From Coprothermobacterota bacterium (lineage in GTDB: Bacteria > Coprothermobacterota > HKB111), in contig JBBIIY010000002.1 in assembly GCA_037446255.1 (NCBI GenBank), positions 1,353 through 65,352 of the forward strand: a stretch of DNA of 64,000 nt. Reading direction: 5' to 3'. Both the position numbers and the translations under genes were made by a program. Below the pieces are notes generated by a model, which was not told where the DNA came from, searched no databases, and saw nothing but the letters and a program-made list of their open reading frames with translations. Positions 489 through 14,932 of the stretch are shown piece by piece (the stretch's first letter is position 1; every line of letters begins with the position of its first letter).

Positions 489-1058
489 ATGTACAGGTGT
501 ACTTGGTGTTTGGGTGATGATTTAATGATGAGATACCACGATGAAGAATGGGGAGTTCCAGTTCATGACGATTCTAAACAATTTGAGTTTCTGGTTTTGG
601 AATCTTCTCAAGCTGGCTTAAGCTGGAAAACAGTTTTATATAAAAGGGAGAATTATAGAAAAGCTTTTGAAGATTTTGACCCCTGGAAAGTCTCAAACTT
701 CACCGAAGAAAACATCAGTAATTTATTAAATAACCCGGGAATAATTAGAAATCGTAGAAAGATAGAAGCTGCTATAAACAATGCTGGGAGGTTTTTGGAA
801 GTTCAAAAGGAATATGGTAGTTTCAGTAATTACTTGTGGAAATTTGTAAAAAATAAACCAGTAGTTAATTTCTGGGAAAATGATTCACAGATTCCTCCAA
901 AGTGTGAGTTATCAGATTTTATAAGCCAGGACTTAAAAAAACGGGGTTTTTCTTTTGTAGGTTCCACTATAATGTATGCACACCTGCAGGCGGTAGGTAT
1001 TGTAAATGACCATATAGTTAGTTGTTTCAGGTATAAAGAATTAACTCGTAGTAGGTAG
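489..1058 (+). CDS. tag: DNA-3-methyladenine glycosylase I
   Basis: RCxW, YHDEEWG, LESSQAGLSW, IIRNRRKI and VNDHIVSC motifs; AGGAGG RBS. Confidence 0.95.
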   Translation: MYRCTWCLGDDLMMRYHDEEWGVPVHDDSKQFEFLVLESSQAGLSWKTVLYKRENYRKAFEDFDPWKVSNFTEENISNLLNNPGIIRNRRKIEAAINNAGRFLEVQKEYGSFSNYLWKFVKNKPVVNFWENDSQIPPKCELSDFISQDLKKRGFSFVGSTIMYAHLQAVGIVNDHIVSCFRYKELTRSR

Positions 1059-1077
1059 CTAAGAGATTTTTAATATT

Positions 1078-1377
1078 TTAATCAGAAGTATATTTTTTCA
1101 GACTTTCAATTAACCTATCCAGAGTTCCATTTTGAAGCTCATCTAACCTTCCCAGGGAGGCAATGACTTTTTGTCGTACCTTACCCTTCTCTCTTCTACC
1201 TTCAACTATTTGCAGGTATATTCTTTCTGTACCATCTTTTTTCTTAAATATTTTTGTTCTTACATACATACTAATATACTAACTGTCTTAATACTCAAAA
1301 GTCAAGTAAAAGTTATCAACATGTGGCACAACGTTTTATTAACATTTTTTAAGTGAGAAAATATATATGGCACAACG
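1078..1377 (-). mobile_element. IS1634-family remnant: N-terminal 63 aa of the transposase (1078-1269) plus upstream promoter and repeats
   Basis: MYVRTK...YLQIVEGRREKGKVRQKVIASLGRLDEL matches the IS1634 transposase N-terminus and there is no DDE domain. TTGACT-18-TAGTAT lies 6 nt before the ATG. A direct repeat ATRTGGCACAACG is at 1321 and 1365. Confidence 0.7.
1321..1377. repeat. 13-bp imperfect direct repeat ATGTGGCACAACG / ATATGGCACAACG
   Basis: Copies at 1321-1333 and 1365-1377, 12/13 identical, upstream of the IS1634-like ORF. Confidence 0.7.
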
Positions 1378-1499
1378 AGAATTAAATTAACAAACCTACT
1401 TTTACTAAATTGTGTTGAAATGGAAAAAATTATAACCATTATTTAAAAATCAGACACATTTATAAAAAATTGAGAGACAGAATAAGAAGAAAGTAGTTA

Positions 1500-1799
1500 A
1501 TGGATTATACAAAACAGGTAAAGCAATTAGTGATAGAAAAAGGTGCTAATTTAATCGGAATTGCCGATTTAAAACATTTCTGGGGTAATTTACCAGTTAT
1601 CCCTGAAAACCTGCTGAATTCATTCAAATTTGGGGTATCTTTTGCAGTAAAATTTAACTATGAAATTATTGATCGTGTTAAAGATAAACCAACTCAGAAT
1701 ATACCAACCTCTTTCCCTCTGATTACAAAAAAAGTCAAATATATTATGGACGACTACACCCTCTTGACAAACTCTTTAAATCAGGTTAGTATAATCTGA
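1500..1799 (+). pseudogene. Truncated epoxyqueuosine-reductase-like (QueG/Fe-S) protein N-terminus
   Basis: GANLIGIADL...GVSFAVK...IIDRVKDKPT resembles the QueG-like N-terminus. There are no Fe-S cysteines and the ORF runs into the downstream promoter. Confidence 0.5.
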
Positions 1800-1810
1800 A
1801 TAGTGATTCA
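1764..1810 (+). promoter_or_regulatory. Sigma70 promoter with overlapping palindromic operator
   Basis: TTGACA (1764-1769), 17 nt, TAGTAT (1787-1792). The inverted repeat TGAAT-AGTG-ATTCA (1797-1810) covers the predicted start site. Confidence 0.65.
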
Positions 1811-1841
1811 TATATAATACCATAAAGGAGTATAAACCTAT

Positions 1842-2843
1842 ATGAAAAGAATTACTAAAATAATAAGCACAGGCTTAAAAGTTCCTGATAAAATCTTACC
1901 AAATCAGTATTTTAACGAATTCTTCAAGGAAGATGTTGGTACCTGGTTAGAGGGTATGGTAGGTCAAAAAGAAAGGCATGTCCTCGCAGAAAGTGAATCA
2001 GTTTCAGATTTGACTATTGAAGCAGCTTTAATGGCTTTAAATGAAGCCAAAGTTACTCCGGAAGATTTGGATTTGATTATTGTGTCTTCGGATACTCATG
2101 AATATATATCTCCTCCAACTTCTTTCGTAGTTCAGGGAAAGATAGGAGCGAAAAATGCTATGAATTTTGACTTGAACGCTTCCTGTGCTTCTTTTGTTAC
2201 CGCCCTTTCTACTGCTGATAGATGGTTAAAAACTGAGAAAAATGCTAAATACGCCTTAGTTATAGGTCAGTACGGCATGACTAAATATTTAGATTGGAAC
2301 GATAAATATACTGCCACCTTATTTGCTGATGGAGCAGGAGCATTCTTGTTAAAAACTGAAGAAACTGACGAGGAAACAGGGATATTGGATTCAGTTTTTA
2401 CCGCAGATGGTACTTACTTTGATTATATTGGAGTGTTTGGAGGTGGAACCAAGTATCCGTTAGACGAAGATACTATGAGTAAAGGTTTGAACAAATTAAG
2501 AATTCTTAAAAGATACCCTCCAGATATTAACTCTAAAAACTGGCCTATTCTTACCAGGAACCTTATGGAAAAAATTAACAAAAAACTTGATGATATAAAC
2601 ATGATATTTTTCACTCAGATTAATCTTACTACTATAAAAGAAGTTATGTTTAATCTAAATATTCCTCTGGAAAAGACTCACTGGGTTATGGATAAATACG
2701 GTTATACCGGTTCCGCATGTATTCCCATGGCAGTACACGATGCCAGAGTTCAGAGAAAACTAAATAAAGATGATTTAGTTATTCTGGTTGCTTCTGGGGC
2801 GGGTTATGCTATGGGTGCAATTGCATTAAAATGGAGTCTGTAA
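1842..2843 (+). CDS. FabH/KAS III-fold enzyme 1 with atypical active site (Cys-Thr-Tyr)
   Basis: DLNASCASF nucleophile loop, LFADGAGA; TQIN in place of HQAN; GYTGSACIP in place of GNTSAASIP. Confidence 0.85.
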   Translation: MKRITKIISTGLKVPDKILPNQYFNEFFKEDVGTWLEGMVGQKERHVLAESESVSDLTIEAALMALNEAKVTPEDLDLIIVSSDTHEYISPPTSFVVQGKIGAKNAMNFDLNASCASFVTALSTADRWLKTEKNAKYALVIGQYGMTKYLDWNDKYTATLFADGAGAFLLKTEETDEETGILDSVFTADGTYFDYIGVFGGGTKYPLDEDTMSKGLNKLRILKRYPPDINSKNWPILTRNLMEKINKKLDDINMIFFTQINLTTIKEVMFNLNIPLEKTHWVMDKYGYTGSACIPMAVHDARVQRKLNKDDLVILVASGAGYAMGAIALKWSL

Positions 2844-2857
2844 AGAGAGGAAAAATA

Positions 2858-3841
2858 ATGTTTTCTATAAAAATTAGCGGGACTGGAATTTATACTCCAT
2901 CTAAAATGATACCTACAAGCAGTATAAATGAGATGGTTGGCGAGGATATAACTCACTGGGCAATAGACAAGATGGGAATAGAGGTTAAAAAAATTTCCGA
3001 TCCAGAGGAAGCTGCTTCAGATCTGGCAGTTATAGCCAGTAGGCAAGCGTTGCAGAAAGCTGGATTAAATCCCACCGATTTGGATTTAGTAATTGTAGCA
3101 ACCGATACTCCTGACTACCTATCCCCTGCTACCTCTTCTGTATTGCAATGTAAATTGGGAGCGAAAAATGCAGGAACTTTCGATGTGAACTGTGCCTGTG
3201 CAGGTTTTGTAACTGCACTGGATACTGCAACTAAGTACCTGCTTACTGATAAATCATATAAAAGAGCTTTAGTAGTCGGTACCTATGCTATGACTAAATT
3301 CTTGAATTGGAAGGATAAAGTAACAGCACCAATTTTTTCTGATGGATCTGGTGCGGTAATTATAGAACAAACTGAGGAAGGCCCAGGTTATTTAGCTTCC
3401 AAAATAATTGCCGATGGTTGTTTTTACGATTACTTAGGCGTATATCTTGGTTCTGGGGCTGTCCCAACCCCTGAATACATAGAGAAAGGTCTTCACTTAG
3501 TCAGGTATAACAAGAGGTATCCTGATGTTAACACCGAAAACTGGCCAATATTAGTGAGAGATACACTAAAGAAAGCTGACCTGTATCCCGAAGATATAGA
3601 CATGATACTTTACACTCAGGTAAGGAAATATACCATAGAGGAAGTTATGAAATCTCTAAATTTGCCAATGGAGAAAACTTATATGGTTATGGGAAAGTAT
3701 GGCTATACAGGGTCTGCTTGCATACCTATGGCACTTAACGATGCCTTAGAGGATGGGAAGATTAATAAAGGAGATATCGTGGTTTTTTGCTCTTCCGGGG
3801 GTGGATATGCCATGGCTGCTTACGTAATGAAATGGGTTTAA
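2858..3841 (+). CDS. FabH/KAS III-fold enzyme 2 with atypical active site (Cys-Thr-Tyr)
   Basis: DVNCACAGF, FSDGSGA, TQVR, GYTGSACIP. The ATG at 2858 follows a GAGAGG RBS and is preferred over 2831. Confidence 0.85.
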   Translation: MFSIKISGTGIYTPSKMIPTSSINEMVGEDITHWAIDKMGIEVKKISDPEEAASDLAVIASRQALQKAGLNPTDLDLVIVATDTPDYLSPATSSVLQCKLGAKNAGTFDVNCACAGFVTALDTATKYLLTDKSYKRALVVGTYAMTKFLNWKDKVTAPIFSDGSGAVIIEQTEEGPGYLASKIIADGCFYDYLGVYLGSGAVPTPEYIEKGLHLVRYNKRYPDVNTENWPILVRDTLKKADLYPEDIDMILYTQVRKYTIEEVMKSLNLPMEKTYMVMGKYGYTGSACIPMALNDALEDGKINKGDIVVFCSSGGGYAMAAYVMKWV

Positions 3842-3856
3842 AAAAGGAGGTTATTT

Positions 3857-4621
3857 ATGCCCTATTTACCTTATAAAGAAGGAAATCTTTATTATGAAGA
3901 ACAAGGTTCGGGGAACAGGATTTTTATATTTGTTCATGGCAATATAGCCTCTCTTAAATATTGGATTAAATTAAGAGAGTTTTTACCAGAGGATTATAAA
4001 AGTTATTTCCTGGACTTGCCAGGATTTGGGCAGTCAGACAACATTCCACCTTATAATATAAACGCTTTTAGTGAAGCTATTTTATATTTCCTTGACACAA
4101 TGGATATTAACTCCTGTATATATGTAGGAAACTCTACTGGTGGTTTAATAGGTATGAATACCTGTCTTAAAACCAAAAAGATTGAAAAAATAATCCTTGT
4201 TTCTACAGTATCTGGAAAAGGTTATCCTTTAACTGATGATGCGCGTGCAGCCTTTAATCTATTAATGACCAACAGGGTATTTTTAGAGCAAATAATAAGA
4301 AATAATGTACTTCCACAATTTACGGATGAGATTATGATTCAGGAGTTTATTCAGGATGCTTTAAGAGCAATACCTCAAGGGTATATTGAGCTTCCAGAAA
4401 GTCTCGGTTCTACAAATATTATTGAAGATTTGAAGAAGGTTAATATTCCAGCTTTGTTCATTCATGGAGAGGAAGATAGGATTATTCCCCTATTTTGGAT
4501 ACAGGATACAGTTAGCGCTATCAGGGGTAAATTGTTGGTTATGAAGGGTCTGGGGCATACGCCACAACTGGTAGCTCCCCAGGAAGTAGCCCGTTTTATT
4601 ATAAATTTCGTAAAGAGGTAA
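3857..4621 (+). CDS. Alpha/beta hydrolase, Bacillus PhaZ (PHB depolymerase/3HB-oligomer hydrolase)-like
   Basis: VHGNIAS oxyanion motif, DLPGFGQS, GNSTGG nucleophile elbow, KIILVSTVSGKGYP, HGEED acid, GH catalytic His. Confidence 0.75.
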   Translation: MPYLPYKEGNLYYEEQGSGNRIFIFVHGNIASLKYWIKLREFLPEDYKSYFLDLPGFGQSDNIPPYNINAFSEAILYFLDTMDINSCIYVGNSTGGLIGMNTCLKTKKIEKIILVSTVSGKGYPLTDDARAAFNLLMTNRVFLEQIIRNNVLPQFTDEIMIQEFIQDALRAIPQGYIELPESLGSTNIIEDLKKVNIPALFIHGEEDRIIPLFWIQDTVSAIRGKLLVMKGLGHTPQLVAPQEVARFIINFVKR

Positions 4622-4625
4622 ATAA

Positions 4626-5369
4626 ATGAAAAAACTTGATGGAAAAGTATGCATCGTAACTGGCGGAGCCAGAGGTATTGGTAAAGAAATAAGTTGGTTA
4701 TTTGCCAAGAAAGGAGCTAGAGTAGTTATTTGGGACCTGGATGTTGAAAATCTTACTGATGTTAAAAAGGAGTTTGAAAATTATAATTTTGAAATATTAA
4801 CCCAGCAAGTGAATGTTACCGATAGGAATCAGGTAAAGACCGCTGTAGCAGAAGTAATAGAAAAATGGAACCAGATTGATGTTCTAATAAATAATGCCGG
4901 TATTACCAGAGATGGATATTTAACTAAAATGACCGAAGAGGACTTTGACCTGGTGATAAATGTAAATTTGAAAGGTGTCTTCAATTGTACCCAGTTGGTA
5001 CTTCCTCAAATGATTGCCCAGAATAGCGGAAGCATTATCTGTCTATCTTCTATAGTGGGCAGGGATGGAAATGTCGGGCAAACTAATTATGCTGCTTCCA
5101 AAGCAGGAGTTGTGGGTATGGTTAAAACCTGGGGAAAGGAACTGGCTCGCTTTAATATCAGGGTAAATGCTATAGCCCCAGGATATACCCTTACAGAAAT
5201 GGTACAGAAAGTCCCTGAAAAAATACTGGACATCATTAAAGAAAAGACTCCCCTGAAAAGGCTTGCTTCTACCGAGGATGTTGCTAAATTAGCTCTTTTC
5301 CTTGCTTCTGATGATTCTAATTTTATAACCGGACAGGTTATCAGCGTAGATGGAGGTTTAGTCCTTTAA
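4626..5369 (+). CDS. SDR family 3-oxoacyl reductase/acetoacetyl-CoA reductase (FabG/PhaB-like)
   Basis: TGGARGIG, NNAGITRD, GQTNYAASKAG; Asp at the end of beta2 (VIWD) suggests NAD(H). Confidence 0.9.
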   Translation: MKKLDGKVCIVTGGARGIGKEISWLFAKKGARVVIWDLDVENLTDVKKEFENYNFEILTQQVNVTDRNQVKTAVAEVIEKWNQIDVLINNAGITRDGYLTKMTEEDFDLVINVNLKGVFNCTQLVLPQMIAQNSGSIICLSSIVGRDGNVGQTNYAASKAGVVGMVKTWGKELARFNIRVNAIAPGYTLTEMVQKVPEKILDIIKEKTPLKRLASTEDVAKLALFLASDDSNFITGQVISVDGGLVL

Positions 5370-5387
5370 CCCCTCAAGGAATGCTTA

Positions 5388-6620
5388 ATGAACAGAATAG
5401 ACCCTAAAACCAGTAAAGGTATAAAAACCCGTGATAGTCTGATAGAAACAGCTACACACCTATTTTATAGTAATGGGTATTTCCAAACTTCCACTCATCA
5501 GATTGCTCAGGAAGCTGGAATGAGCACACCTTCTTTTTACCAGTATTTCTATAAAAAAGAGGACATTCTTTTTGAAATCATTACCACATTTGCCAGTGAG
5601 CTTTTTAGAAAATTAAAATTATCTCTTAATCCAGAAGATGGTTTGGAAATAAATATACGAAAGTTTTATACAGAATATCTATCCTATCTGAAGCTAAACA
5701 GAAAAAATTATAAAATATTCAGGGAAACTGAATTTGTCGGCTACCCGTATGTTAAACAGTACTATTTTGAATTGGGAGAAATACTAAAAAACCTATTAGG
5801 TAGTGATATTCCAGATTGGTTACCGGTTAACGAAATTATTAACAATTTAATCGGTTCTGTCTATTTTGTAGCCCTAAAAAAGATTGATTGGGAAGATTGC
5901 GAAGACATCAAATATCTCTCTGATGAATTAACCCAGTTTACCCTTAAAGGAATTAATAACAGGGCTGATTATAAACTTCGTCATAACATGCAAAAAACCT
6001 GGATGTTTTCAGATTTATCAAGTACACCCAAAAAATTATCTAAAAGTGAAGAAACCAAGCGAGGGCTATTGAGGGCAGCAGAAAAACTGATAGGGCAAAA
6101 TGGTTATGATAAAACTCACATTTCTGATATAACCCGTGAAGCAGGTGTAGGTCAGGGAACATTTTACCTTTATTTTCAATCTAAATTGGATATATTGAAA
6201 GCATTGGTTCAGGATATAAATAAAGGATTGAGGTTTGCTGTCTATCAATATATTGTAGGTTTATCCCATAGAAATGATATTGAGGTAGGTGCTTTATTAG
6301 CTTTTTCTGAATACATCAAAAACCACCGTAATGCTTATCGGGTGGTTAGAGAAGCAGAATTCGTTGATAGAGAAATCGGGAAATGGTATTACAATAGGAT
6401 TGCTGAACCCTACGCCATAGCCTTAAAAGAAGTAATGATTAAAGGGGAAATTAACTCACTTGACCCAGAATTATTAGGGCTAGCCATTATGGGTATGGGG
6501 CATGTTTTAGGGCTTATGTGGGTGGTCTGGAATGATAGTGATAATCCTTCTATCCCTGAAGAATCCTTGAGAAATACTTTGAAAATTATACTATTTGGAG
6601 TAAAAGGTGAAGAGAGTTAA
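5388..6620 (+). CDS. Tandem double TetR/AcrR-family transcriptional regulator
   Basis: Two TetR HTH units (IAQEAGMSTPSFYQYF and ITREAGVGQGTFYLYF), each followed by a similar ligand domain (RETEFV / REAEFV). Confidence 0.9.
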   Translation: MNRIDPKTSKGIKTRDSLIETATHLFYSNGYFQTSTHQIAQEAGMSTPSFYQYFYKKEDILFEIITTFASELFRKLKLSLNPEDGLEINIRKFYTEYLSYLKLNRKNYKIFRETEFVGYPYVKQYYFELGEILKNLLGSDIPDWLPVNEIINNLIGSVYFVALKKIDWEDCEDIKYLSDELTQFTLKGINNRADYKLRHNMQKTWMFSDLSSTPKKLSKSEETKRGLLRAAEKLIGQNGYDKTHISDITREAGVGQGTFYLYFQSKLDILKALVQDINKGLRFAVYQYIVGLSHRNDIEVGALLAFSEYIKNHRNAYRVVREAEFVDREIGKWYYNRIAEPYAIALKEVMIKGEINSLDPELLGLAIMGMGHVLGLMWVVWNDSDNPSIPEESLRNTLKIILFGVKGEES

Positions 6621-7890
6621 TTTTCAGGAATTATTGAATTATATTCCTTCAGAAGCCACAATTGTTACTGGAATGGTTGCAGGACAACCGGGATATTTTT
6701 TGAGCAATTTGCATAAAAAAGGTAATGCGAAAAAAATATCTGTATCCTTAGCTTTACCTTTAGAACCCTATAAATTCTTTATGAACCCGGAATATAAAAA
6801 CAAGTTCCTTTTAGAGTCCTGGTATCATGGTTCTTTTGCCCGAAAAAGCCAGTATCAGGGAACGGTAACTTTCATTCCCAACCAGTTAAACCGGGCGGGC
6901 CTGGACAGGCAGGAGATAAATCCACCGGATGTGATTGTTCTTACTTCTCCCCCACCGGATAGAAATGGTTTCTTTAACCTTTCTTTATCTATCACCTATG
7001 AGAAGTTTTTAGCTCTTAATAAGAAAGATGGTGCCTTGGTGGTTATGGAAGTCAATCCCAAGCTTCCGCGAGTTATGGGAGATACTTTCCTTCACCAGAG
7101 TTATGTTGATTATTATTACGAAGTTGATACTCCCTTGTTTACTTTAGGAGAACAAAAACCTCAGGAAGAGGAACAGAAAATTGGGGAATTAATATCCAAA
7201 TTGGTTGAAGACGGTTCTACTATACAACTCGGTATAGGCGGAATTCCTAATGCTGTTGCTTATTTGTTGGAAGACAAAAACGACCTGGGTGTCCATACCG
7301 AAATGATAACTGAAAGTATGCAATATCTTTATAAAAAGGGGGTGATAAATGGAAAGAAAAAAACTTTTTATCCCGCAACTATGGTAGGGACTTTCATTTA
7401 TGGTTCTGATGAATTGTATAGATTTGTAAATGAAAACCCTGTGATTAACCTTTTACCCGGGCATATAACCAATGATCCTCATTATATAGGGCAGCAGTAC
7501 AAGATGGTTTCAATAAATACCGCTTTAATGGTTGATTTGACCGGTCAAGTGTGTTCGGAAAGCATTGGAATTGAACAAATTTCTGGAACAGGTGGTCAGG
7601 TTAATTTTCATACTGGAGCTCAACATTCAAAAAATGGGAAAGGTATTTTAGCCCTGAGATCAACCGCTAAAGATGGTAGTATCTCAACCATAGTTCCCGG
7701 CTTGCCTCAAGGCTCAACTGTTACTTTATCGCGTAATGATGTTGACTACATTGTAACTGAGTTTGGTGTTGCCAGGTTGAAAGGGAAAAGCATAAAAGAT
7801 AGAGTTGAAATCTTAATTTCGGTTGCACACCCGAAATTTAGAGAATACCTCCGTGAGGAGGCAAAAAGAATTAAAATTTATAATTGGTAA
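6607..7890 (+). CDS. Acetyl-CoA hydrolase/transferase family (4-hydroxybutyrate CoA-transferase-like)
   Basis: QLGIGGIPNAV, catalytic HTEM, GTGGQ, IVTEFGVA, AHPKFR. Confidence 0.9.
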   Translation: MKRVNFQELLNYIPSEATIVTGMVAGQPGYFLSNLHKKGNAKKISVSLALPLEPYKFFMNPEYKNKFLLESWYHGSFARKSQYQGTVTFIPNQLNRAGLDRQEINPPDVIVLTSPPPDRNGFFNLSLSITYEKFLALNKKDGALVVMEVNPKLPRVMGDTFLHQSYVDYYYEVDTPLFTLGEQKPQEEEQKIGELISKLVEDGSTIQLGIGGIPNAVAYLLEDKNDLGVHTEMITESMQYLYKKGVINGKKKTFYPATMVGTFIYGSDELYRFVNENPVINLLPGHITNDPHYIGQQYKMVSINTALMVDLTGQVCSESIGIEQISGTGGQVNFHTGAQHSKNGKGILALRSTAKDGSISTIVPGLPQGSTVTLSRNDVDYIVTEFGVARLKGKSIKDRVEILISVAHPKFREYLREEAKRIKIYNW

Positions 7891-7903
7891 GGAGGAGTGT
7901 GAA

Positions 7904-9472
7904 ATGAAAAAATTTGTTAGTGTGCTTTTAGTATTATCGTTACTGGCGTGGTGTCTTCCAGCATCAATTGCTCAAACAACTGCAACTGATGGTTCTTTGT
8001 TAGTGTTACAGGTTGGTTCAAAATCATACCTGAAAAATGGAGCTCACTTAACTATGGATGTGGAACCTGAAATAGTTAAAGGCAGAACATTTGTTCCTAT
8101 CAGATTCGTAAGCGAAGCGTTGGGGGCTGGGGTTAATTGGAATGAAACCACTAAAACAGTGACCATTACTTCGGGATTAACAGTTATTGTTTTAAAAATC
8201 GGCAGCGTAGAAGCTACTGTCAGAGATAAGAAACTTGTTTTAGAAGCAGCTCCTTATATCAAAGCTGGTAGGACAATGACTCCTATTAGATTGGTCAGTG
8301 AAGGCTTGGGAATGTTTGTTCATTGGGGAAGCCAGGCCAGACAAGTATTTATCAGAGAGAAACCAAGTGTTAGTGTTCCAGGAGTCAGTGCAGATGAAAT
8401 TAAAATAGGAAGTTTTATTGCTCTGACAGGATTTTTAGCCTTTGTGGGTGTACCTTTTTATCAGGGAATGCAGTCATATTTCAACATGGTTAATGATGCA
8501 GGCGGAGTGTATGGTAAAAAGATTAAATTAATAGTTGAAGATGACCGGTTTGATCCAGCCAGAACAGTAACAGGAGTTAAGAAGTTAGTAGAAGAGGATA
8601 AAGTATTAGCTATAGTAGGTGGTCTTGGTACCCCAGGATGTCTGGCAGTAATGGATTACCTGAACAAAGGGAAAGTTCCCTTCGTTTATCAGGGTTCTGG
8701 TGTTTCTATTTTATCTGTTCCACCCCAAAGATACGTCTTTTCAGTACAACCCAACTATTTCAACGAAGGGCAAATCTTTGTCCAGCACATTGTGAATAAT
8801 ATGAAACTTAAAAGAATTGCAGTAATGTATCAGGATGATGATGCTGGAAGAGAAGGCTTATTTGGTGTTAGAACTGGCATTAAGAGGTTTGGTGGAAGTA
8901 TATCTTTGGAAATACCTTTCCCTGGAACTGAAACAGACTTTACTCCTTATTTATTAAGAGTAAAAGCAAGTGGTGCAGATGCTTTAATAGTATATTCTTT
9001 AAGCGTGGGTGTTGGTGCTACGGTAGTAAAAGCTACTAAATCTCTGGGAATTACCCAAAGTGTATTTTTACCTTACCCCCATTCGGGGATTATTGGAGCA
9101 GCTGGAGATGCTGCTGAGAATGTATATGTTACAGGTTGGGTAGATTTTTCTGACCCCCAAGAACCAGGAGTAAAAAAATTCTGGGATATCTGGCTCAAAT
9201 ACTTCCCCAAAGGAGACCCTCTATCTTTTTCATATGCAGTCGCTGGTTATGCTGCTGGAGAAGTATTTGTGGAAGCACTGATGAGATTAGGACCGAATCC
9301 TTCCAGAGAAGCACTGGTATGGGCTTTAGAATCTTATAGGAATTGGAATGGTGACTTAGTAAAAGATTTAAGTTATGGTACTAAAGAAAGATCTGGTAAG
9401 TATTCAATGTTCTTTATGCAAGTTATCAATAAAGAACTGAAGAAAGTTAGCGGTTGGGTGTCTGTTTTATAA
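7904..9472 (+). CDS. ABC substrate-binding protein (LivJ-type) fused to an N-terminal copper-amine-oxidase-like (stalk) domain
   Basis: ATG 7904 follows AAGGAGG. Signal peptide, then GRTFVPIRFVSEALG and GRTMTPIRLVSEGLG repeats, then PGVSADEIKIG...GGVYGKKIKLIVEDD. Confidence 0.88.
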   Translation: MKKFVSVLLVLSLLAWCLPASIAQTTATDGSLLVLQVGSKSYLKNGAHLTMDVEPEIVKGRTFVPIRFVSEALGAGVNWNETTKTVTITSGLTVIVLKIGSVEATVRDKKLVLEAAPYIKAGRTMTPIRLVSEGLGMFVHWGSQARQVFIREKPSVSVPGVSADEIKIGSFIALTGFLAFVGVPFYQGMQSYFNMVNDAGGVYGKKIKLIVEDDRFDPARTVTGVKKLVEEDKVLAIVGGLGTPGCLAVMDYLNKGKVPFVYQGSGVSILSVPPQRYVFSVQPNYFNEGQIFVQHIVNNMKLKRIAVMYQDDDAGREGLFGVRTGIKRFGGSISLEIPFPGTETDFTPYLLRVKASGADALIVYSLSVGVGATVVKATKSLGITQSVFLPYPHSGIIGAAGDAAENVYVTGWVDFSDPQEPGVKKFWDIWLKYFPKGDPLSFSYAVAGYAAGEVFVEALMRLGPNPSREALVWALESYRNWNGDLVKDLSYGTKERSGKYSMFFMQVINKELKKVSGWVSVL

Positions 9473-9495
9473 AGCATAGAACTTAAACGAAATAC

Positions 9496-9524
9496 TGGCA
9501 GGGGGAATTTTCTTCCCCCTGCCA
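9496..9524 (+). other. Strong intergenic hairpin (likely mRNA stabiliser) after the SBP gene
   Basis: TGGCAGGGGGAA-TTTTC-TTCCCCCTGCCA is a perfect 12-bp stem with no U-tract on the sense strand. Confidence 0.7.
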
Positions 9525-9543
9525 AAAACTATTTATAAAAGGT

Positions 9544-10293
9544 GTGAAGGTGATATTAAAGGTAAAAGATTTAACAGTAAAGTTCGGCGGACTCATAGCA
9601 GTAAATAAACTATCCTTTGATGTTAATCCCTATACGATCCATGGACTGATAGGTCCTAATGGAGCAGGTAAAACAACTGTATTTAACAGTATTTTTAAGT
9701 TAGTACCCTACCATGGAAATTTAATATATAAAAATATAGATATTGGAAGATACCCTACCTACTCTTTAGTTAATTTGGGTATATCCAGAACATTTCAAAA
9801 TTTAAGCATTTTTTATTCTATGACAGTAAAAGAAAATATTCTCGTGGGTCTTCATAGTAAAAAAAGTAGTAATCTTTTTAAAGACTCGTTGGGTTTTACC
9901 ATAAACTCAGAAAAAGAATTATTGGAAGTGTCTGAATTATTGAATATACTTCCCTTTTTGAATATATATGCAATGTTTCTTCCTTATGGAGTGCTCAAAA
10001 TGGTAGAACTTGCACGAGCCTTGATAAGTAAACCTCAGTTACTTCTTCTTGATGAACCTGGAGCAGGATTAAATCCCTCAGAAAAAGAAAGATTAAAAGA
10101 GATAATCAAACGAATTAAAGAAATGGGAACATCTGTTCTAATGGTGGAACACGATATGGGAATTATTATGGATATTTCTGATGAAATAACTGTTATGAAT
10201 TTTGGTGAAAAAATCTCTACTGGCACTCCAGAAATGGTAAGTCATGACCAGAAAGTTATAGAGGCTTACTTAGGGGAGGAAATCCATGCTTAA
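9544..10293 (+). CDS. Branched-chain amino acid-type ABC transporter ATPase (LivG-like)
   Basis: GPNGAGKTT, RTFQN, LPYG, LLLDEP, VIEAYLG. Confidence 0.92.
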   Translation: MKVILKVKDLTVKFGGLIAVNKLSFDVNPYTIHGLIGPNGAGKTTVFNSIFKLVPYHGNLIYKNIDIGRYPTYSLVNLGISRTFQNLSIFYSMTVKENILVGLHSKKSSNLFKDSLGFTINSEKELLEVSELLNILPFLNIYAMFLPYGVLKMVELARALISKPQLLLLDEPGAGLNPSEKERLKEIIKRIKEMGTSVLMVEHDMGIIMDISDEITVMNFGEKISTGTPEMVSHDQKVIEAYLGEEIHA

Positions 10294-10987
10294 AATAGAA
10301 GGGCTGGTATCAGGTTACGGACACTTAGAAATCCTCCACAGTATTAATTTATCTGTGGAAAAAGGAGAAATTGTGTCAGTCCTGGGTTCAAACGGTGCAG
10401 GAAAGTCAACCCTCCTGAGGACTATCTCAGGTATTTTAAAACCCTGGAAAGGAACAATTACCTTTGAAGGAAGATTATTAAACAATCTTGACCCCATACA
10501 AATCGTAAAACATGGCGTAGTGCATGTGCCAGAAGGTAGACATATCTTTCCGGGTTTAACGGTAAAAGAAAATTTATTGCTTGCTGGATATAAACTTAGG
10601 AATATTGAATTATCTGAAAGATATAATTTCGTGTACACCATGTTTCCAGTGTTGAAAGAAAGGGAAAAACAGTTAGGTGGTACTTTAAGCGGAGGAGAAC
10701 AGCAAATGTTAGCATTAGCCAGAGGAATAATGCCCAAGCCAAGTCTTTTATTGCTGGATGAACCTTCATTAGGACTGGCTCCTAAACTGGTTACTTTAAT
10801 ATTTAAAGCTCTGAAGAGATTTAGAGACGAGGGGTTGACAATTTTACTAGTTGAGCAAAACGCTAAAAGAGCTTTGGAAATTTCCAATCGTGCCTATATT
10901 CTGGCTACTGGATATCTTGCCTTAGAAGGCAATTCCAGTGATTTAATTGCAGACCAGAATGTAAAACGACTATACCTGGGGAGGTAA
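10286..10987 (+). CDS. ABC transporter ATPase (LivF-like)
   Basis: GSNGAGKST, VPEGR, LSGGEQQM, LDEPSLGLAP. Confidence 0.92.
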   Translation: MLKIEGLVSGYGHLEILHSINLSVEKGEIVSVLGSNGAGKSTLLRTISGILKPWKGTITFEGRLLNNLDPIQIVKHGVVHVPEGRHIFPGLTVKENLLLAGYKLRNIELSERYNFVYTMFPVLKEREKQLGGTLSGGEQQMLALARGIMPKPSLLLLDEPSLGLAPKLVTLIFKALKRFRDEGLTILLVEQNAKRALEISNRAYILATGYLALEGNSSDLIADQNVKRLYLGR

Positions 10988-10992
10988 AGAAT

Positions 10993-11862
10993 ATGTTTGA
11001 AATTTATCTCAACTTAATAGCCCGAGGTTTATCAACTGGAGCTATATATGGTCTGACAGCCATGGGTATCGTCCTGATATTCCAGACTAATAATATCTTA
11101 AACTGGTCACAGGGAAATGCAGGTATGCTAATAACTTACCTTGCCTTCTTTCTTCTCACTTTACAACTTCCCTACCCTTTAGTAATTCTTCTGGCAGTTA
11201 TTGCTGGAGCTACCCTGGGAGGGACGATAGAAAAGTACCTCATAAGACCTGTAAGAGAAAAATCGCGCATTGGGTTACTCATGATAACTTTAGGTTTGGC
11301 AATGGTTTTTGAAGGATTAGCTGCGTTTATATTTAGACCCTTCCCCCGTAATTTCGACCCTCTTCTCAAAGGTTCGGTAACCTTTGGACCAATAACGCTC
11401 GGACAGCAGGATTTTTTGGTCATAGCACTTTCTACTTTTATTTTTACAACTCTTTTCTTAATTTTGTACCGAACTAAAATAGGTATAGGTGCCAGGGGTA
11501 TTGCAGAAGATTGGTATGGAGCTAGGATTCTGGGAGTGCCTGTTTTTGCCATATACCTTTTTATCTGGTCCATAAGCTTTGCTCTCTCCGGGTTAGTAGG
11601 CATCTTAGTTGTACCCAGGTTTGCCCTTGAGCCTCATTTTATGTTGCCTATCCAGGTAAAAGCTTTTTCTGCTGCTGTGCTTGGAGGTATGAATTCTGTA
11701 TTAGGTGCTATCATTGGTGGGCTGCTTTTAGGTGTTATGGAAAATATTATTGCTTTTCATTTCCCTTTTTTAAAAGAAAGTTTTTCACTTATTTTAGTAG
11801 TAATAGTACTACTTTTTCTTCCAACTGGTCTTTTGGGTAGAAAAACCCAGAGGAGGTTTTAA
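10993..11862 (+). CDS. ABC transporter permease (LivH-like)
   Basis: GAIYGLTAMG, KAFSAAVLGG, PTGLLG; hydrophobic throughout. Confidence 0.9.
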   Translation: MFEIYLNLIARGLSTGAIYGLTAMGIVLIFQTNNILNWSQGNAGMLITYLAFFLLTLQLPYPLVILLAVIAGATLGGTIEKYLIRPVREKSRIGLLMITLGLAMVFEGLAAFIFRPFPRNFDPLLKGSVTFGPITLGQQDFLVIALSTFIFTTLFLILYRTKIGIGARGIAEDWYGARILGVPVFAIYLFIWSISFALSGLVGILVVPRFALEPHFMLPIQVKAFSAAVLGGMNSVLGAIIGGLLLGVMENIIAFHFPFLKESFSLILVVIVLLFLPTGLLGRKTQRRF

Positions 11863-12803
11863 TGAAAAAGTCAATAATAATTTCTATTTTTATACTGCTT
11901 TTATCTTTGGCTATGCCATTTATTTTTGCTGAAAAACCTTCTCAGATAGCCTATTTAAATATAATAATGATTTATGCAATATCTGCTCAAGGGTTAAACC
12001 TCCTGCTGGGTTATGCAGGCCAGGTATCACTTGGTCATGCTGCTTTTATGGCTATTGGCGGTTATACTTCGGCAATTCTGGTTATGCAATTTGGGTTTAA
12101 TAATATATTTTCAATCATCTGTGCAATTCTATTAACCGGTTTTTGCGGTCTTTTTGTAGGGTTCCCTTCCTTAAGATTGTCTGGGTTCTATTTAGCAATT
12201 GCTACTATGGCATTAGGTACTGCAACCGCTGATATTATTAAACGATTGGTTATTACGGGAGGAGATCAAGGCTTAAGGAATATTCCACCAATAAATATTT
12301 TTGGTTACGAATTTCAATCAGAAATACAAAAATACTATTTATTTTTGTTTATCTTAATAATAGTGTTCATACTGGTAAAAAATCTTGTTAACAGCAGAAG
12401 CGGTAGAGCACTAAGAGCTATTCGTGATGCCGAGCTTACAGCTGAGACTATGGGGATAAACATCGCCTACTATAAAGTTGTAGCCTTTGTTGCATCATCT
12501 ATGATTGCTGGGTTAAGCGGAGTTTTATATGCACATTCTATATCTTATCTACATCCGGTTAATTTCGGTCTTAGTTTTTCTATTGAACTATTAGCTATTA
12601 CTATTGTTGGAGGATTAGCTACAATTTGGGGACCTCTCCTGGGTGCCTTATTCTGGGTATTATTACCAAGATTAATCGGAGTAAGGATGGAGTTTTTAGC
12701 TACTACTTTATTCGGGATAATGGTAATTTTATCAATCAGATTTTTCCCCAGAGGGCTAAGCGAGATAATTTTCAAGTTGGAAAAAAAGCTGAAACTATCT
12801 TAA
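11862..12803 (+). CDS. ABC transporter permease (LivM-like)
   Basis: GLNLLLGYAGQVSLGHAAF, RLSGFYLAIAT, GRALRAIRD. Confidence 0.9.
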   Translation: MKKSIIISIFILLLSLAMPFIFAEKPSQIAYLNIIMIYAISAQGLNLLLGYAGQVSLGHAAFMAIGGYTSAILVMQFGFNNIFSIICAILLTGFCGLFVGFPSLRLSGFYLAIATMALGTATADIIKRLVITGGDQGLRNIPPINIFGYEFQSEIQKYYLFLFILIIVFILVKNLVNSRSGRALRAIRDAELTAETMGINIAYYKVVAFVASSMIAGLSGVLYAHSISYLHPVNFGLSFSIELLAITIVGGLATIWGPLLGALFWVLLPRLIGVRMEFLATTLFGIMVILSIRFFPRGLSEIIFKLEKKLKLS

Positions 12804-12822
12804 AAATTAACTGAAAGAAATG

Positions 12823-13839
12823 TCAGCAGATTCGGGGTAAAAGCTCTCCAGCTGGTATATTAATGACTCTTTTCGCTCCATAAATAGTTTTCATCATAAC
12901 TAAACCTGGATGGTGGTCAGTAACCCTGCCAATGATACTGGCATCTACACCTAACTCATTTTTCTTCATTTCAGTTAATATTTTTTCAGCGTTCTCTTCT
13001 GAAACAAAAGTTATGAATTTTCCCTCATTCGCCAGATAAAGCGGTTCAAGGCCCAACATTTCACAGGCATTAATAACTGCACTTTTTATGGGAATTGAAT
13101 CTTCAAATATTTCAATACCTACGTTTGAGGCTAAGGCAACTTCATTAAGGGAAGTCCCTAAACCTCCTCTGGTAGGATCTTTTAAAACATGGATATCAGA
13201 AGATATTTTGAATATTGATTCAATAATCATATTTAACGGAGCGCAGTCACTTTGTATTAATGAAGAAAACTTCATCCCATCTCTCTGGCTGAGGATAGCT
13301 ATCCCGTGGTCCCCTATCGTTCCGTTTATTAGTATCAAGTCCCCTATTTTAGCGTTGGTGGTAGACACAAATCTACCTTCGGGAATAATTCCAATACCCG
13401 AGCTGTTGATAAATATTTTATCAGCAGCTCCCTTTTCAACTACCTTAGTATCACCGGTAATAATTTTTACACTGGCTTTTTGGGAATATTGAAACATTGA
13501 CTTAACAATATTTTCCAAATCATTTATTAAAAACCCCTCTTCAATGATAAAACCTACACTTAGATAAAGCGGTAGGGCTCCTCTCATAGATAGATCATTA
13601 ATTGTTCCGCAAACAGCCAATTTGCCTATATCGCCACCTGGAAAAAAAATAGGTTTAACCACATAACTATCAGTGGAAAAGCATAATTTACCAGCTGGTA
13701 AATCGGGAATAGTGCTGGCATCTTCATTATTTAGTAGCTGGGGTTCAGTAAAATATTTCAGGAAAATATCTTTTATAAGACTATGACTGAGTCTTCCCCC
13801 ACTTCCATGAGCTAATAGAATCCTATCTTGATTATTCAT
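12823..13839 (-). CDS. hypE: Hydrogenase maturation protein HypE
   Basis: LAHGSGG, DSYVVKP, DPTRGG, C-terminal PRIC. Start corrected to ATG 13839. Confidence 0.96.
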   Translation of the reverse strand: MNNQDRILLAHGSGGRLSHSLIKDIFLKYFTEPQLLNNEDASTIPDLPAGKLCFSTDSYVVKPIFFPGGDIGKLAVCGTINDLSMRGALPLYLSVGFIIEEGFLINDLENIVKSMFQYSQKASVKIITGDTKVVEKGAADKIFINSSGIGIIPEGRFVSTTNAKIGDLILINGTIGDHGIAILSQRDGMKFSSLIQSDCAPLNMIIESIFKISSDIHVLKDPTRGGLGTSLNEVALASNVGIEIFEDSIPIKSAVINACEMLGLEPLYLANEGKFITFVSEENAEKILTEMKKNELGVDASIIGRVTDHHPGLVMMKTIYGAKRVINIPAGELLPRIC

Positions 13840-14926
13840 AAGAGTAAAGATAATAAGCAGAGCATGCGCCTTCAGAAGAAACCATACATGCACCCAAAGG
13901 ATTATCTGGGGTGCATATATTTTTGAAGTAGCGACATTCTGGCGGTTCAATTAAACCCCGAATAACTTCGTGACACTGACAACCATCAGAGTTGAATACT
14001 TCAGACTCTGGAATTATGATATCAAATTGGTGCCTTACATCAAATTCCTTGTATGAACTCTTAATACTTAAACCACTATTTGGAATTGAACCTAAACCAC
14101 GCCAGTTAGCTACATCTTCGTAAAAAATTTCATGCATGGTGCTAATTGCCCGAGTATTGCCTTCGGGTTTTACACTTCTGGAATAAGTATTGATAACCTG
14201 GGGTTTATTATCAATACATTGTCTAATCAGGCTTTCTAAACCCTTCAAAATGTCAATCGCTTCAAAACCTGATATAGCAAAAGGCATATTATACAAAGAG
14301 GGCAGAAATTCCCAGGCTAAAGAACCAATGATAGTGCTAACATGTCCGGGTCCAAGTATTCCATCAAGACTGATTTCACCAAGGTTTAGAATAGCTTTAG
14401 TTGCTGGTGGAGTTAACTTGTGCATGGAAAAAACATAATAATTAGAGATATTCTCATTAATTGCTTTTAAAATAGACGCAGCGACCAATGGTGCAGTAGT
14501 TTCAAAACCAATACCAAGAAAAATCACTTTTTTCATTTTATTCTGTTGAGCAATAAGTATAGCATCTAGAGGTGAATATACTATTCTAATATCAGCTCCC
14601 TGTGCTCTTGCTTTTTGGAGGCTTATACCATCTTTTCCGGGGACCTTCAAAAAATCTCCAAATGTAGTAACAATTACTCCTGGTAAATATGAAAGTGATA
14701 TGGAGTAATCAATCTCTCTCTGGTCGGTAACACATACCGGACATCCAGGTCCTGAAAGCATTTTAATGTTTTTAGGAAGCAATTTTCTTATACCGTGTTT
14801 AAAAATTGCTTGAGTGTGCGTACCGCAGAATTCCATAAAAGTTAAGGGTTGGACCGATAAATCAAACATATTTTTAATTATAGACTTGAATAGTGAAGGG
14901 TCTTTGTATTTAGCTATTAAATTCAT
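13832..14926 (-). CDS. hypD: Hydrogenase maturation protein HypD
   Basis: MEFCGTH, GPGCPVC, GFETT, PGHVS, CMVSSEGAC. Confidence 0.97.
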   Translation of the reverse strand: MNLIAKYKDPSLFKSIIKNMFDLSVQPLTFMEFCGTHTQAIFKHGIRKLLPKNIKMLSGPGCPVCVTDQREIDYSISLSYLPGVIVTTFGDFLKVPGKDGISLQKARAQGADIRIVYSPLDAILIAQQNKMKKVIFLGIGFETTAPLVAASILKAINENISNYYVFSMHKLTPPATKAILNLGEISLDGILGPGHVSTIIGSLAWEFLPSLYNMPFAISGFEAIDILKGLESLIRQCIDNKPQVINTYSRSVKPEGNTRAISTMHEIFYEDVANWRGLGSIPNSGLSIKSSYKEFDVRHQFDIIIPESEVFNSDGCQCHEVIRGLIEPPECRYFKNICTPDNPLGACMVSSEGACSAYYLYSYE

Positions 14927-14932
14927 TATTTT

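Follow-up and report, generated by a model that had tools for sequence, protein, structure and literature searches.

Two adjacent genes, A and B, in the 64,000-nucleotide stretch of DNA analysed here (the window) encode relatives of the β-ketoacyl-ACP synthase III (KAS III) FabH that keep its nucleophilic cysteine but carry other residues in place of its active-site His and Asn. The question raised by this locus is what such proteins do, and which pathway they serve.

The gene pair and its operon

Genes A and B lie at the head of an operon on the forward strand, with the following features (window coordinates).

1764–1792, + strand: promoter-like site TTGACA-17-TAGTAT upstream of gene A, a 10/12 match to the consensus
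1842–2843, + strand: KAS III-like paralogue A, 333 aa, of the Cys/Thr/Tyr/Cys type (ORF, Pfam domains)
2858–3841, + strand: KAS III-like paralogue B, 327 aa from the putative ATG at 2858 (ORF, active-site positions)
3857–4621, + strand: alpha/beta hydrolase with a Ser-Asp-His triad and a GNSTGG nucleophile elbow (Pfam Abhydrolase_1)
4626–5369, + strand: FabG/PhaB-like short-chain dehydrogenase (SDR), scoring at the FabG cut-off
5388–6620, + strand: double TetR-family regulator, 410 aa, with two TetR_N domains (Pfam)
6607–7890, + strand: CoA-transferase of the 4-hydroxybutyrate / butyryl-CoA:acetate type (Pfam AcetylCoA_hyd_C)
7904–9472, + strand: substrate-binding protein of a Liv-type (HAAT) ABC importer (ORF; the longest ORF starts at 7823)
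9544–12803, + strand: ABC importer of two ATPases (9544–10293 and 10286–10987) and two permeases (10993–11862 and 11862–12803), ORFs named from sequence and orthologue clustering, not from a family search

Gene A is preceded by an AGGAG ribosome-binding site. The longest reading frame of gene B spans 2831–3841 on the forward strand (336 aa), but its true start is most likely the ATG at 2858, since an AGAGAGG ribosome-binding site precedes it by 7 nt and homologues are 327–329 aa long; with this start the two genes are separated by a 14 nt gap and do not overlap. The promoter-like site ties for the best consensus match within 1000–14500, a region in which such sites are no more numerous in total than in shuffled controls. 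A search of 1400–1850 for TetR-operator-like inverted repeats identified no operator, the sole hit being an AT palindrome of 10 nt within the upstream ORF, and an Rfam scan of the window gave no match. Sequencing runs listed for this stretch or a portion of it comprised six DNA runs from three studies and no RNA run.

Both proteins have the Pfam domains ACP_syn_III and ACP_syn_III_C (E 1e-23 to 1e-26), and they are 49% identical to each other (159/326 residues). The AF2 model of gene B (pLDDT 92.4) matches the FabH fold (4dfe) at TM 0.92 and FabH structures generally at TM 0.90–0.93 with ∼30% identity; BioZ, at TM 0.93, is as close as FabH. Both nonetheless score below the cut-offs of the FabH models, with 222.4 (A) and 241.9 (B) bits against 249 for NCBIfam NF006829, and 194.9 and 223.6 bits against 292.1 for TIGR00747. 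Thiolase_N matches A below its cut-off (19.7 bits, E 6e-4, against 26.4) and does not match B, and PqsC is a weak solved relative of both (E 3e-11 for A, 3e-17 for B).

The genome has a canonical FabH elsewhere, with LHQAN and GNTSAAS motifs, in a fabZ-fabK-fabH-accDA (FAS-II) cluster on contig C14. The same contig encodes a second FabG, 41% identical to the SDR of the operon. A canonical thiolase is also present in the genome, beside AtoD/AtoA-like CoA-transferase subunits.

Active-site residues and the extent of the clade

Active-site positions (E. coli FabH numbering) were assigned by alignment to solved FabH proteins (2ebd, 1zow, 8vd9, 4dfe, 4ryb), to the canonical FabH of the same genome and to E. 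coli FabH, all of which agree. The nucleophilic Cys112 is retained (NASCASF in A, NCACAGF in B), His244 is replaced by Thr in both (FTQIN in A, YTQVR in B), Asn274 is replaced by Tyr, and the 11-mer KYGYTGSACIP is identical between the two, just as the sequence-only reading of the locus had described. His244 and Asn274 of FabH stabilise the malonyl-derived enolate (PMC10054515). The same sequence-only reading had spoken of an added second Cys; the residue is present, but the alignments place it at FabH position 279, a site occupied by Ser or Thr in 98 of 100 canonical representatives, and on these alignments it is a near-isosteric replacement of Ser, not an insertion. Arg249, which we take to be the ACP-docking residue of FabH, is found in 83 of the 100 canonical representatives; this position is Thr in A, Tyr in B and assorted in their relatives, among which Arg151 and Arg36 are not conserved either.

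A census of 122 full-length representatives gave 100 of the C/H/N type and 20 of the C/T/Y type. Cys112, Thr244, Tyr274 and Cys279 are each present in 20/20 of the latter group, positions 244 and 274 having served to define it. Further changes relative to FabH are Thr81 to Asp, Phe87 to Ser, Ala216 to Asn and Phe304 to Ser. Asp81 occurs in 19/20 members and is outside the four commonest residues at that position among the 100 canonical FabH proteins, and Ser is found at position 87 in 16/20, giving Ser-Pro where FabH has Phe87-Pro88. Proteins of this type also have an additional RYPxDVNxxxWP segment relative to canonical FabH. Of 63 columns with ≥90% conservation among the other members, A and B each match the family residue in at least 56.

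Chance does not account for the pattern: the motif K[WYF]GYTGSAC is present in 113 of the 120 best homologues. Among representatives at 50% identity, the best 17 comprise 14 of the C/T/Y/C type, one C/N/Y/S and two truncated sequences, and from the 18th onward the matches are almost all C/H/N. The group is monophyletic against nine canonical FabH sequences (SH-aLRT 98), as are within it the A-type clade that includes gene A (SH-aLRT 100) and the B-type clade that includes gene B (SH-aLRT 99). Judged by these sequence comparisons, A and B are members of a large, so far uncharacterised clade that is sister to FabH and present in several phyla; members with the import/esterase module were found in Acidobacteriota, Thermotogota and the Caldisericota/Coprothermobacterota neighbourhood. 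The shared substitutions are thus inherited from a multi-phylum clade, and the earlier suggestion that they signal selection on this particular pair does not hold.

An ESM Atlas search returned only clusters automatically named FabH and gave no functional lead. Literature searches, with subscription journals mostly outside their reach, turned up neither a description of a KAS III clade with Thr/Tyr at 244/274 nor an account of a KAS III gene in PHB-utilisation clusters. Three sequences deserve separate mention. An apparent KAS-ligase fusion (P0271) was rejected as a deletion or assembly artefact, its KAS part ending before the Tyr motif and its ligase apparently having no N-terminal part; a 302-bit match in G039 is a canonical FabH and not a clade member; and the C-terminal extension of P0131 looks frameshifted.

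Related loci and the proposed chemistry

The operon points to import and catabolism. Residues Ser93, Asp207 and His234 of the hydrolase are invariant across 20 orthologues, and its best named relatives are PHB depolymerases (8ynv, E 1e-17), although its score on NF050089 (120 bits) is far below the cut-off of 300. The SDR scores 297.8 bits against 296 on NF004198 and 297.4 against 297.75 on TIGR01830. The C-terminal half of the regulator matches 6el2, the acyl-CoA-responsive FadR of Sulfolobus acidocaldarius (E 1e-33), and the best solved relative of the CoA-transferase is the 4-hydroxybutyrate CoA-transferase 3eh7 (E 6e-96). For the binding protein we infer a start at 7904 from a 524-aa orthologue in locus L004; over residues 183–525 it matches solved binding proteins of the Leu/Ile/Val type, for example 4kv7 (E 6e-24).

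Related loci were drawn from the 80 closest metagenome matches, a biased sample, and counts out of 33 refer to dereplicated loci of at least 8 kb. L004 and L005 carry the same ten genes, G004 has this set with just one KAS gene, and in all three the importer genes follow the KAS genes in the same order. A transporter is present in all 33 loci, an esterase in 30, a ligase or CoA-transferase in 29, MaoC or an SDR in 19 and a TetR regulator in 16. Enzymes of the MaoC and FabG-like SDR types are R-specific; an SDR is present in only 7/33 loci, and 14/33 have neither. Where ligases occur, their best scores, below cut-off, are to long-chain-fatty-acid or FadD11-type models. In 59/83 loci the esterase gene lies directly beside the KAS gene on the same strand, and in one protein (P0270) the two are fused. 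No thiolase was found among 692 ORFs of 87 loci, and the loci showed neither an acyl-CoA dehydrogenase nor a crotonase-type hydratase. Fervidobacterium loci consist only of KAS, TetR and importer genes, and no CoA-activating enzyme is nearby. One locus, L029, encodes a protein (123–1163) that scores 294.7 bits against a cut-off of 150 as the catalytic domain of an extracellular type-1 scl-PHA depolymerase; the gene is also in L027, L030 and L034, but after dereplication it is in 3/33 loci only, all of one Acidobacteria-like type.

The sequence-only reading held that neither protein is a working FabH, and several lines now converge on this: scores below the FabH cut-offs, the loss of His244, Asn274 and Arg249, a canonical FabH elsewhere in the genome, and the CoA-based import and catabolic context. 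Because they are not working FabH enzymes and sit in such a context, the non-decarboxylating thiolase or acyltransferase activity that it also put forward would still be the best reading, one drawn from residues and gene context.

We tentatively favour, as plausible if short of probable, the explanation that A and B are ACP-independent acyl-cysteine enzymes of hydroxyacyl-CoA catabolism that perform a thiolase-type step in an operon for PHB-type compounds. Considered by itself, the activity is probably thiolase-like, or else that of an ester-to-thioester transacylase, and the operon most likely burns small hydroxy-acid esters such as PHB fragments. The substrate class, the chemical step and the residue roles are what we infer from these data. 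Under control of the FadR-like double TetR, the Liv-type ABC system would take up small (R)-3-hydroxyacyl compounds, for which PHB-type oligomers or monomers are the likeliest candidates, and the adjacent Ser-Asp-His hydrolase would de-esterify them. The 4-hydroxybutyrate-type CoA-transferase would then load the hydroxy acids onto CoA and the FabG/PhaB-like reductase, run in reverse, would oxidise the hydroxyacyl-CoA. In the thiolase-type step of A and B, Cys112 would attack the 3-keto carbon; the leaving enolate would be held by the Tyr274 and Thr244 hydroxyls, which would stand in for Asn and His, and would take a proton from Asp81 or Cys279, and the acyl-Cys would be handed to CoA. Real thiolases have their His and second Cys at other positions in the fold, a point against this scheme. 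Asp81 may correspond to the position of the HMG-CoA synthase general base (the catalytic Glu).

In favour of a thiolase-type step are the CoA-transferase and TetR matches, the shared ten-gene operon, the content of the 33 loci and the lack of a thiolase among the ORFs of the 87 loci. The FabH fold and the retained family residues speak for catalytic competence, and OleA provides a precedent for non-decarboxylative chemistry in a FabH relative. Against it we count the genome's own thiolase beside AtoD/AtoA-like subunits, which means that no pathway step is strictly missing, the presence of the SDR, which would make the 3-keto substrate, in just 7/33 loci, the 14/33 loci with neither SDR nor MaoC, the minimal Fervidobacterium loci and the bias of the sample. 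The link to PHB draws on the L029 depolymerase and the best named matches of the window esterase; counted against it are the few loci with that depolymerase and the low NF050089 score. A plain thiolase role also leaves the very tight association of KAS and esterase genes, including the fusion, unaccounted for.

Less likely, yet a serious competitor, is an ester-to-thioester transacylase, in which the Cys would be acylated by an oxo-ester (a 3HB dimer or oligomer, or a CoA derivative) or by an acyl-CoA and the acyl group then passed to CoA or to a hydroxyl; there would be no carbanion chemistry, Tyr274 would protonate the leaving alkoxide and the esterase would trim or proofread. This accommodates the esterase as the strongest conserved partner, the many loci without a dehydrogenase, the Fervidobacterium loci without a CoA-activating enzyme, and a pocket turned polar by Asp81, Ser87, Asn216 and Ser304. 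KAS III-fold O-acyltransferases are known, such as CerJ and ChlB3, although these use Cys-His-Asp and so retain a His (PMC9573744), whereas the clade has none at 244 or 274. The Cys of the FabH relative OleA is acylated by p-nitrophenyl esters (PMC7064751). None of CerJ, ChlB3 and DpsC is among the 60 solved relatives listed for A or B, transfer from oxo-ester to thioester is energetically uphill, and the fusion is one sequence that could be read-through.

It is unlikely, though by no means far-fetched, that the enzyme type is as we propose and the imported acid another: in place of PHB products, lipid-derived fatty acids (medium-chain or hydroxylated) or aromatic acids of the hydroxycinnamate type are candidates. 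The FadR that the regulator resembles belongs to a lipase and β-oxidation regulon, the ligases of related loci lean to long-chain or FadD11 types, and the Pfam family Esterase_PHB extends beyond PHB depolymerases. Weak solved relatives of the binding protein include 4ey3, 4eyg and 4eyk, which we take to be binders of benzoate derivatives. The window CoA-transferase, however, is of the short-chain 4-hydroxybutyrate/butyrate type, the L029 depolymerase passes the cut-off of a specific scl-PHA model, and acyl-CoA dehydrogenases and crotonase-type hydratases were not seen in the loci.

More speculative, and in our estimation improbable, is that the Cys, together with the esterase, takes the 3-hydroxyacyl unit directly from PHB oligomers or CoA esters to CoA and conserves the ester-bond energy, with the pair acting as a heterodimer or as two homodimers tuned to oligomer lengths. 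The clade would on this view be a new kind of thiolase-superfamily enzyme; 3-hydroxybutyryl-CoA would then be formed with no ATP spent per monomer, and Tyr/Thr/Asp would replace His/Asn because an alkoxide is handled and not an enolate.

HMG-CoA-synthase-like aldol chemistry or its reverse, in which Asp81 would serve the acyl-Cys as general base and a keto group, not a thioester, would be the target of condensation, is very unlikely. Asp81 is near-constant in the clade and not a common canonical FabH residue, it presumably falls at the place of the catalytic Glu of HMG-CoA synthase, the YTGS string presumably resembles a motif of that enzyme, and A and B give weak matches to HMG-CoA synthase models. 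However, their scores on NF003274 (63.5 bits for A, 75.2 for B) are far below the cut-off of 244, the His of the Glu-Cys-His triad of that enzyme is absent at the aligned positions, no mevalonate or leucine-pathway genes are in the operons, and a search of the genome for HMG_CoA_synt_N gave no match.

That A and B are ordinary decarboxylating condensing enzymes (FabH, BioZ or NphT7-like) using Thr/Tyr hydroxyls for His/Asn is the least credible of all: the fold and Cys are intact, BioZ is a close structural match and the neighbours include a FabG-like reductase and a BioH-like esterase, but C/T/Y proteins stand apart from C/H/N ones in the census, Arg249 is gone, the A/B operon has no ACP, malonyl-CoA or biotin genes, FabH is encoded elsewhere, and the importer and TetR context points to catabolism.

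A role in diabolic-acid or membrane-spanning lipid synthesis, suggested by the taxa, was dropped since the context is one of import and catabolism and that pathway is assigned to radical-SAM enzymes.

Significance and comparison with known systems

Thousands of database proteins named 'beta-ketoacyl-ACP synthase III' are members of this clade, and it is almost certain that they do not initiate fatty-acid synthesis; they are therefore mis-assigned in genome-based metabolic models. The clade represents a third way to furnish a KAS III active site, one in which hydroxyls and a carboxylate replace His/Asn. If the PHB link is true, it would be an unrecognised, widespread route for polyhydroxyalkanoate breakdown products, including in strict anaerobes with tiny genomes, and would offer a new enzyme for bioplastic recycling chemistry.

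FabH/KAS III proteins (EC 2.3.1.180), such as those of B. xenovorans (4dfe), Aquifex (2ebd) and E. coli (1hn9), share with A and B the fold, Pfam domains, length and position of the nucleophilic Cys, but have a FAS-II gene context where A and B are in an import operon. OleA retains Cys-His-Asn, and no oleBCD-type genes lie near A and B. OleA joins two acyl-CoAs in a Claisen condensation that involves no decarboxylation; the acidic general base that it needs is Glu117, contributed by the partner subunit, and its His is His285 (PMC7064751). The clade has its acid at FabH position 81 and Ser at 87, in a Ser-Pro that corresponds to the Glu117-Pro of OleA by motif and not by alignment. CerJ and ChlB3 have the KAS III fold and transfer acyl groups through Cys without condensation, with a Cys-His-Asp triad unlike the clade (PMC9573744). 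They belong to antibiotic clusters.

PqsBC is encoded, as A and B are, by two adjacent KAS III-like genes, and it is possible that A and B form a heterodimer. The A and B types are each monophyletic and the tandem is kept in two lineages ∼60% identical to each other, although 28/33 dereplicated loci have a single KAS copy. PqsB has lost its catalytic residues, whereas A and B both keep all the clade active-site positions. LstA/LstB of lipstatin synthesis are reportedly a precedent for a KAS III paralogue heterodimer. A complex prediction of A, B and the esterase, in which the esterase was scored, gave ipSAE 0.00 in both runs, done without controls, and counts neither way.

The degradative thiolase (acetyl-CoA C-acyltransferase) is a member of the same superfamily. 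Like it, A and B would pass through an acyl-Cys, act on a CoA substrate and work in a catabolic operon that also provides for CoA activation and has a dehydrogenase or hydratase, but the thiolase is built from another domain family (Thiolase_N/Thiolase_C).

Active sites of the tandem pair and their relatives

Genes A and B, the KAS III-like paralogues at the head of the operon, both encode ACP_syn_III and ACP_syn_III_C domains (Pfam), and their products share 49% identity. The start of gene B is most likely at 2858, 14 nt past the gene A stop, since AGAGAGG precedes the ATG at this position and its homologues are 327-329 aa long.

Genes of the operon
1842-2843, +, gene A, KAS III-like ORF, 333 aa
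2831-3841, +, gene B, KAS III-like, longest ORF, 336 aa
3857-4621, +, Ser-Asp-His alpha/beta hydrolase (esterase)
4626-5369, +, FabG/PhaB-like SDR
5388-6620, +, double TetR, 410 aa
6607-7890, +, CoA-transferase
after the CoA-transferase, +, Liv-type binding protein
ending at 12803, +, two ATPases and two permeases

Alignments to solved FabH, to the genome's canonical FabH and to E. coli FabH (whose numbering is used here) agree that both proteins retain Cys112, that position 244 is Thr instead of His (FTQIN in A, YTQVR in B), and that position 274 is Tyr instead of Asn within a shared KYGYTGSACIP. The sequence-only reading had described the pair correctly in these respects, with TQIN/TQVR replacing HQAN. 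The second Cys that it reported is present, but as a swap at position 279, canonically Ser or Thr, with nothing added. For B, the AF2 model is of high confidence (pLDDT 92.4) and its nearest solved folds are FabH and BioZ (TM 0.90-0.93, identity 25-33%); no solved structure from the C/T/Y clade was found among the structural relatives searched with A and B.

By sequence comparison, these changes are a trait of a clade that extends beyond the pair. When B was the query of a word-indexed search, 5893 of the 8000 candidates scored reached E ≤ 0.001, and K[WYF]GYTGSAC is present in 113 of the 120 best homologues. Searched exhaustively, the 50%-identity representatives yielded 15,599 matches at E ≤ 0.001. 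The best 17 (476 to 215 bits) carry C/T/Y/C at 112/244/274/279 in 14 cases and C/N/Y/S in one, two being truncated; from the 18th onward matches are canonical C/H/N, except for scattered C/T/Y/C matches, several of which are fragments. In a quick IQ-TREE analysis of 53 rows the C/T/Y sequences lie on one side of a branch separating them from nine canonical FabH proteins (SH-aLRT 98). No published account of a C/T/Y KAS III clade was found in the literature searched.

The comparison covered 20 full-length clade rows and 100 canonical rows. Since grouping was by positions 112/244/274, only other positions are informative. Among these, we take Arg249 to be the ACP-docking residue of FabH, and Arg36 and Arg151 are presumably CoA-phosphate contacts.

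Residues in canonical FabH and in the clade
Thr81: canonical not Asp; clade Asp 19/20
Phe87: canonical Phe; clade Ser 16/20
Gly209: canonical Gly; clade Lys/Arg 14/20
Ala216: canonical Ala; clade Asn 19/20
Ser279: canonical Ser/Thr 98/100; clade Cys 20/20
Phe304: canonical Phe; clade Ser 17/20
Arg249: canonical Arg 83/100; clade without conservation
Arg151: canonical Arg 91/100; clade without conservation
Arg36: canonical Arg 72/100; clade without conservation

The operon and its conservation

Judged by gene content and order, A and B are set in a conserved uptake operon. Two loci, L004 and L005, share all ten genes in identical order, and G004, a complete 1.42 Mb genome of the same phylum, has an esterase, one KAS, an SDR, an importer, a double TetR and a CoA-transferase. 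Thermotogota MAGs carry one KAS beside the importer (40% identical, FTQVR and K[YF]GYTGSAC), with double TetR, SDR and esterase variably present.

Scanning metagenome contigs for the pattern produced 571 confirmed stretches, of which the 80 closest were kept, a sample biased towards close relatives. The 692 ORFs from 87 loci were clustered, and the clusters named by Pfam and NCBIfam. The commonest layout, which looks Acidobacteria-like from the names on similar proteins, is TetR, TonB-dependent-type outer-membrane barrel, esterase, KAS, acyl-CoA ligase, esterase, MaoC hydratase, MFS.

Features in 33 loci of at least 8 kb, dereplicated from 41 at 90% KAS identity
Transporter: 33/33
Esterase: 30/33
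Ligase or CoA-transferase: 29/33
Single KAS copy: 28/33
MaoC or SDR: 19/33 (MaoC 14, SDR 7)
TetR: 16/33

In 59 of 83 loci the gene directly beside KAS on the same strand encodes an esterase, the other 24 being mostly short contigs or having KAS at a contig end, and Ser, Asp and His are invariant in the 20 KAS-adjacent esterases compared. A search for longer relatives found a single fused sequence, P0270 (624 aa), comprising an N-terminal esterase, a linker and a complete C/T/Y/C KAS domain. Apart from weak matches to the KAS clade itself, no locus contains a thiolase-like ORF.

Two loci (L060:28-1074 and L075:73-1122, minus) also contain a further, highly divergent KAS III-like gene (tree branch length 3.8) with its own ligase, transcribed divergently from the main esterase-KAS-ligase set across importer genes. 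In the L059 and L079 variant, the esterase-KAS pair occurs with a sodium:solute symporter, a TonB-dependent receptor, a 4HBT-type thioesterase, a weak MarR-like protein, a 2-hydroxyglutaryl-CoA-dehydratase-type D-component and a BcrAD/BadFG activator ATPase.

The regulator is a single polypeptide of two complete TetR units (two TetR_N matches). Its second half matches 6el2 (E 1e-33), described as the acyl-CoA-responsive FadR of Sulfolobus acidocaldarius, a repressor of a lipase and beta-oxidation cluster (PMC6449355). Among the relatives listed, only one solved protein, Mce3R (9b7y, 406 aa), has a comparable length, and it is a weak match (E 9e-6). Proteins grouped with the regulator by BLAST accompany KAS genes across several phyla (L004, L005, L016, L017, L007, and G004 at L096:15460-16683).

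A promoter-like TTGACA-17-TAGTAT lies at 1764-1792. The ∼780 bp between a methyladenine glycosylase gene (489-1058) and gene A (1059-1841) are AT-rich (GC 0.32 versus 0.36-0.38 in the operon) and hold only a 63-aa ORF (1078-1269, minus) and a 99-aa ORF (1500-1799, plus), neither with a Pfam family; both may be relics of genes left at the boundary of an acquired operon. Directly downstream and convergent are hydrogenase maturation genes hypE-like (AIRS/AIRS_C), hypD and hypF (12823-17423, minus). A 1025-aa fusion (24630-27707, minus) joins thioredoxin-like 2Fe-2S, NuoF-like FMN/4Fe-4S and GltD-like Fer4_20/pyridine-nucleotide-disulphide oxidoreductase parts, a layout typical of the NAD(P)H-linked modules of bifurcating hydrogenase or formate dehydrogenase complexes.

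Origin of the pair and the source genome

Copies of the A type (window, L005, L017, L018) group together with SH-aLRT 100, and those of the B type (window, L005, L016, L017, L018, P0009) with SH-aLRT 99, so the duplication is older than the split from a lineage with only ∼60% identity in its B copy. In the family to which the window belongs, two genomes (G002, G003) have the tandem pair and an 83%-complete one (G001) has a canonical match only; a sister genus has one KAS copy in three of five genomes, and no clade KAS was found in the other four genomes searched within the phylum. In 63 columns the remaining 89 family members show at least 90% conservation; the A clade departs from them at six of these, including Pro83 to His next to Asp81 and otherwise at less telling positions, and the B clade at two. 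With so few departures, both copies seem catalytically intact. The pair may equally act as two homodimers of different specificity or as an AB heterodimer.

The source assembly (1.15 Mb, completeness 95.9%) encodes a third KAS III on contig C14 (LHQAN and RYGNTSAAS) within a fabZ-fabK-fabH-accD-accA row; C14 also carries a FabG 41% identical to the operon's SDR. On C1 (115973-118486), two AtoD/AtoA-like 3-oxoacid CoA-transferase subunit genes are followed directly by a true, canonical thiolase, together a classic acetoacetate-utilisation trio. Among named records, the closest are a 'Ca. Psychracetigena formicireducens' MAG, at 93% identity, and a Coprothermobacterota MAG, at 79%; the former name belongs to 'Ca. 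Lithacetigenota' (PMC9751293).

Possible substrate and chemistry

Several features suggest, indirectly, that the operon's substrate is a PHB-type (R)-3-hydroxyacyl ester or acid. A secreted-looking protein opens the operon in L027, L029, L030 and L034 (three after dereplication) and, at 294.7 bits, exceeds the cut-off (150) for the catalytic domain of an extracellular type-1 short-chain-length PHA depolymerase. The best named relatives of the window esterase are PHB depolymerases, with a score far below cut-off. FabG/PhaB-like SDRs and MaoC/PhaJ-like hydratases are two R-specific routes for (R)-3-hydroxyacyl-CoA, and the window CoA-transferase, matching 4-hydroxybutyrate CoA-transferases (3eh7, E 6e-96), is of the short-chain hydroxy-acid type. 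Other acids, fatty or aromatic, are still admissible.

That Cys112, the overall fold and the GxG oxyanion loop are retained supports an ability of A and B to form an acyl-Cys from an acyl donor. On the alignments both lack the His and Asn through which malonyl units would be decarboxylated, and canonical Arg249 is lost; in FabH, His244 and Asn274 stabilise the enolate derived from malonyl-ACP (reviewed in PMC10054515). As annotated, the conserved operons would supply CoA thioesters, the sole gap being a thiolase-superfamily step, and this favours thiolase-type cleavage of 3-ketoacyl-CoA, which we propose tentatively: Tyr274 and Thr244 would hold the enolate and Asp81 or Cys279 would donate the proton. 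Asp81 may correspond to the base of HMG-CoA synthase. OleA, a FabH relative, is described as performing Claisen chemistry without decarboxylation, using an acidic base, and oxo-esters can acylate its Cys (PMC7064751).

The cleavage proposal is weakened by the genome's own thiolase, by the many loci missing a dehydrogenase, and by the very tight esterase-KAS link, one fusion included. All three fit as well or better with the main rival, that the clade is an ester-to-thioester transacylase acting on oligomers, which we consider less likely. A and B represent a real, well-conserved new active-site variant of the known KAS III fold, whose function we infer. CerJ and ChlB3 have the same fold and perform pure acyl transfer, but with Cys-His-Asp (PMC9573744), whereas the A/B clade has Cys112/Thr244/Tyr274.
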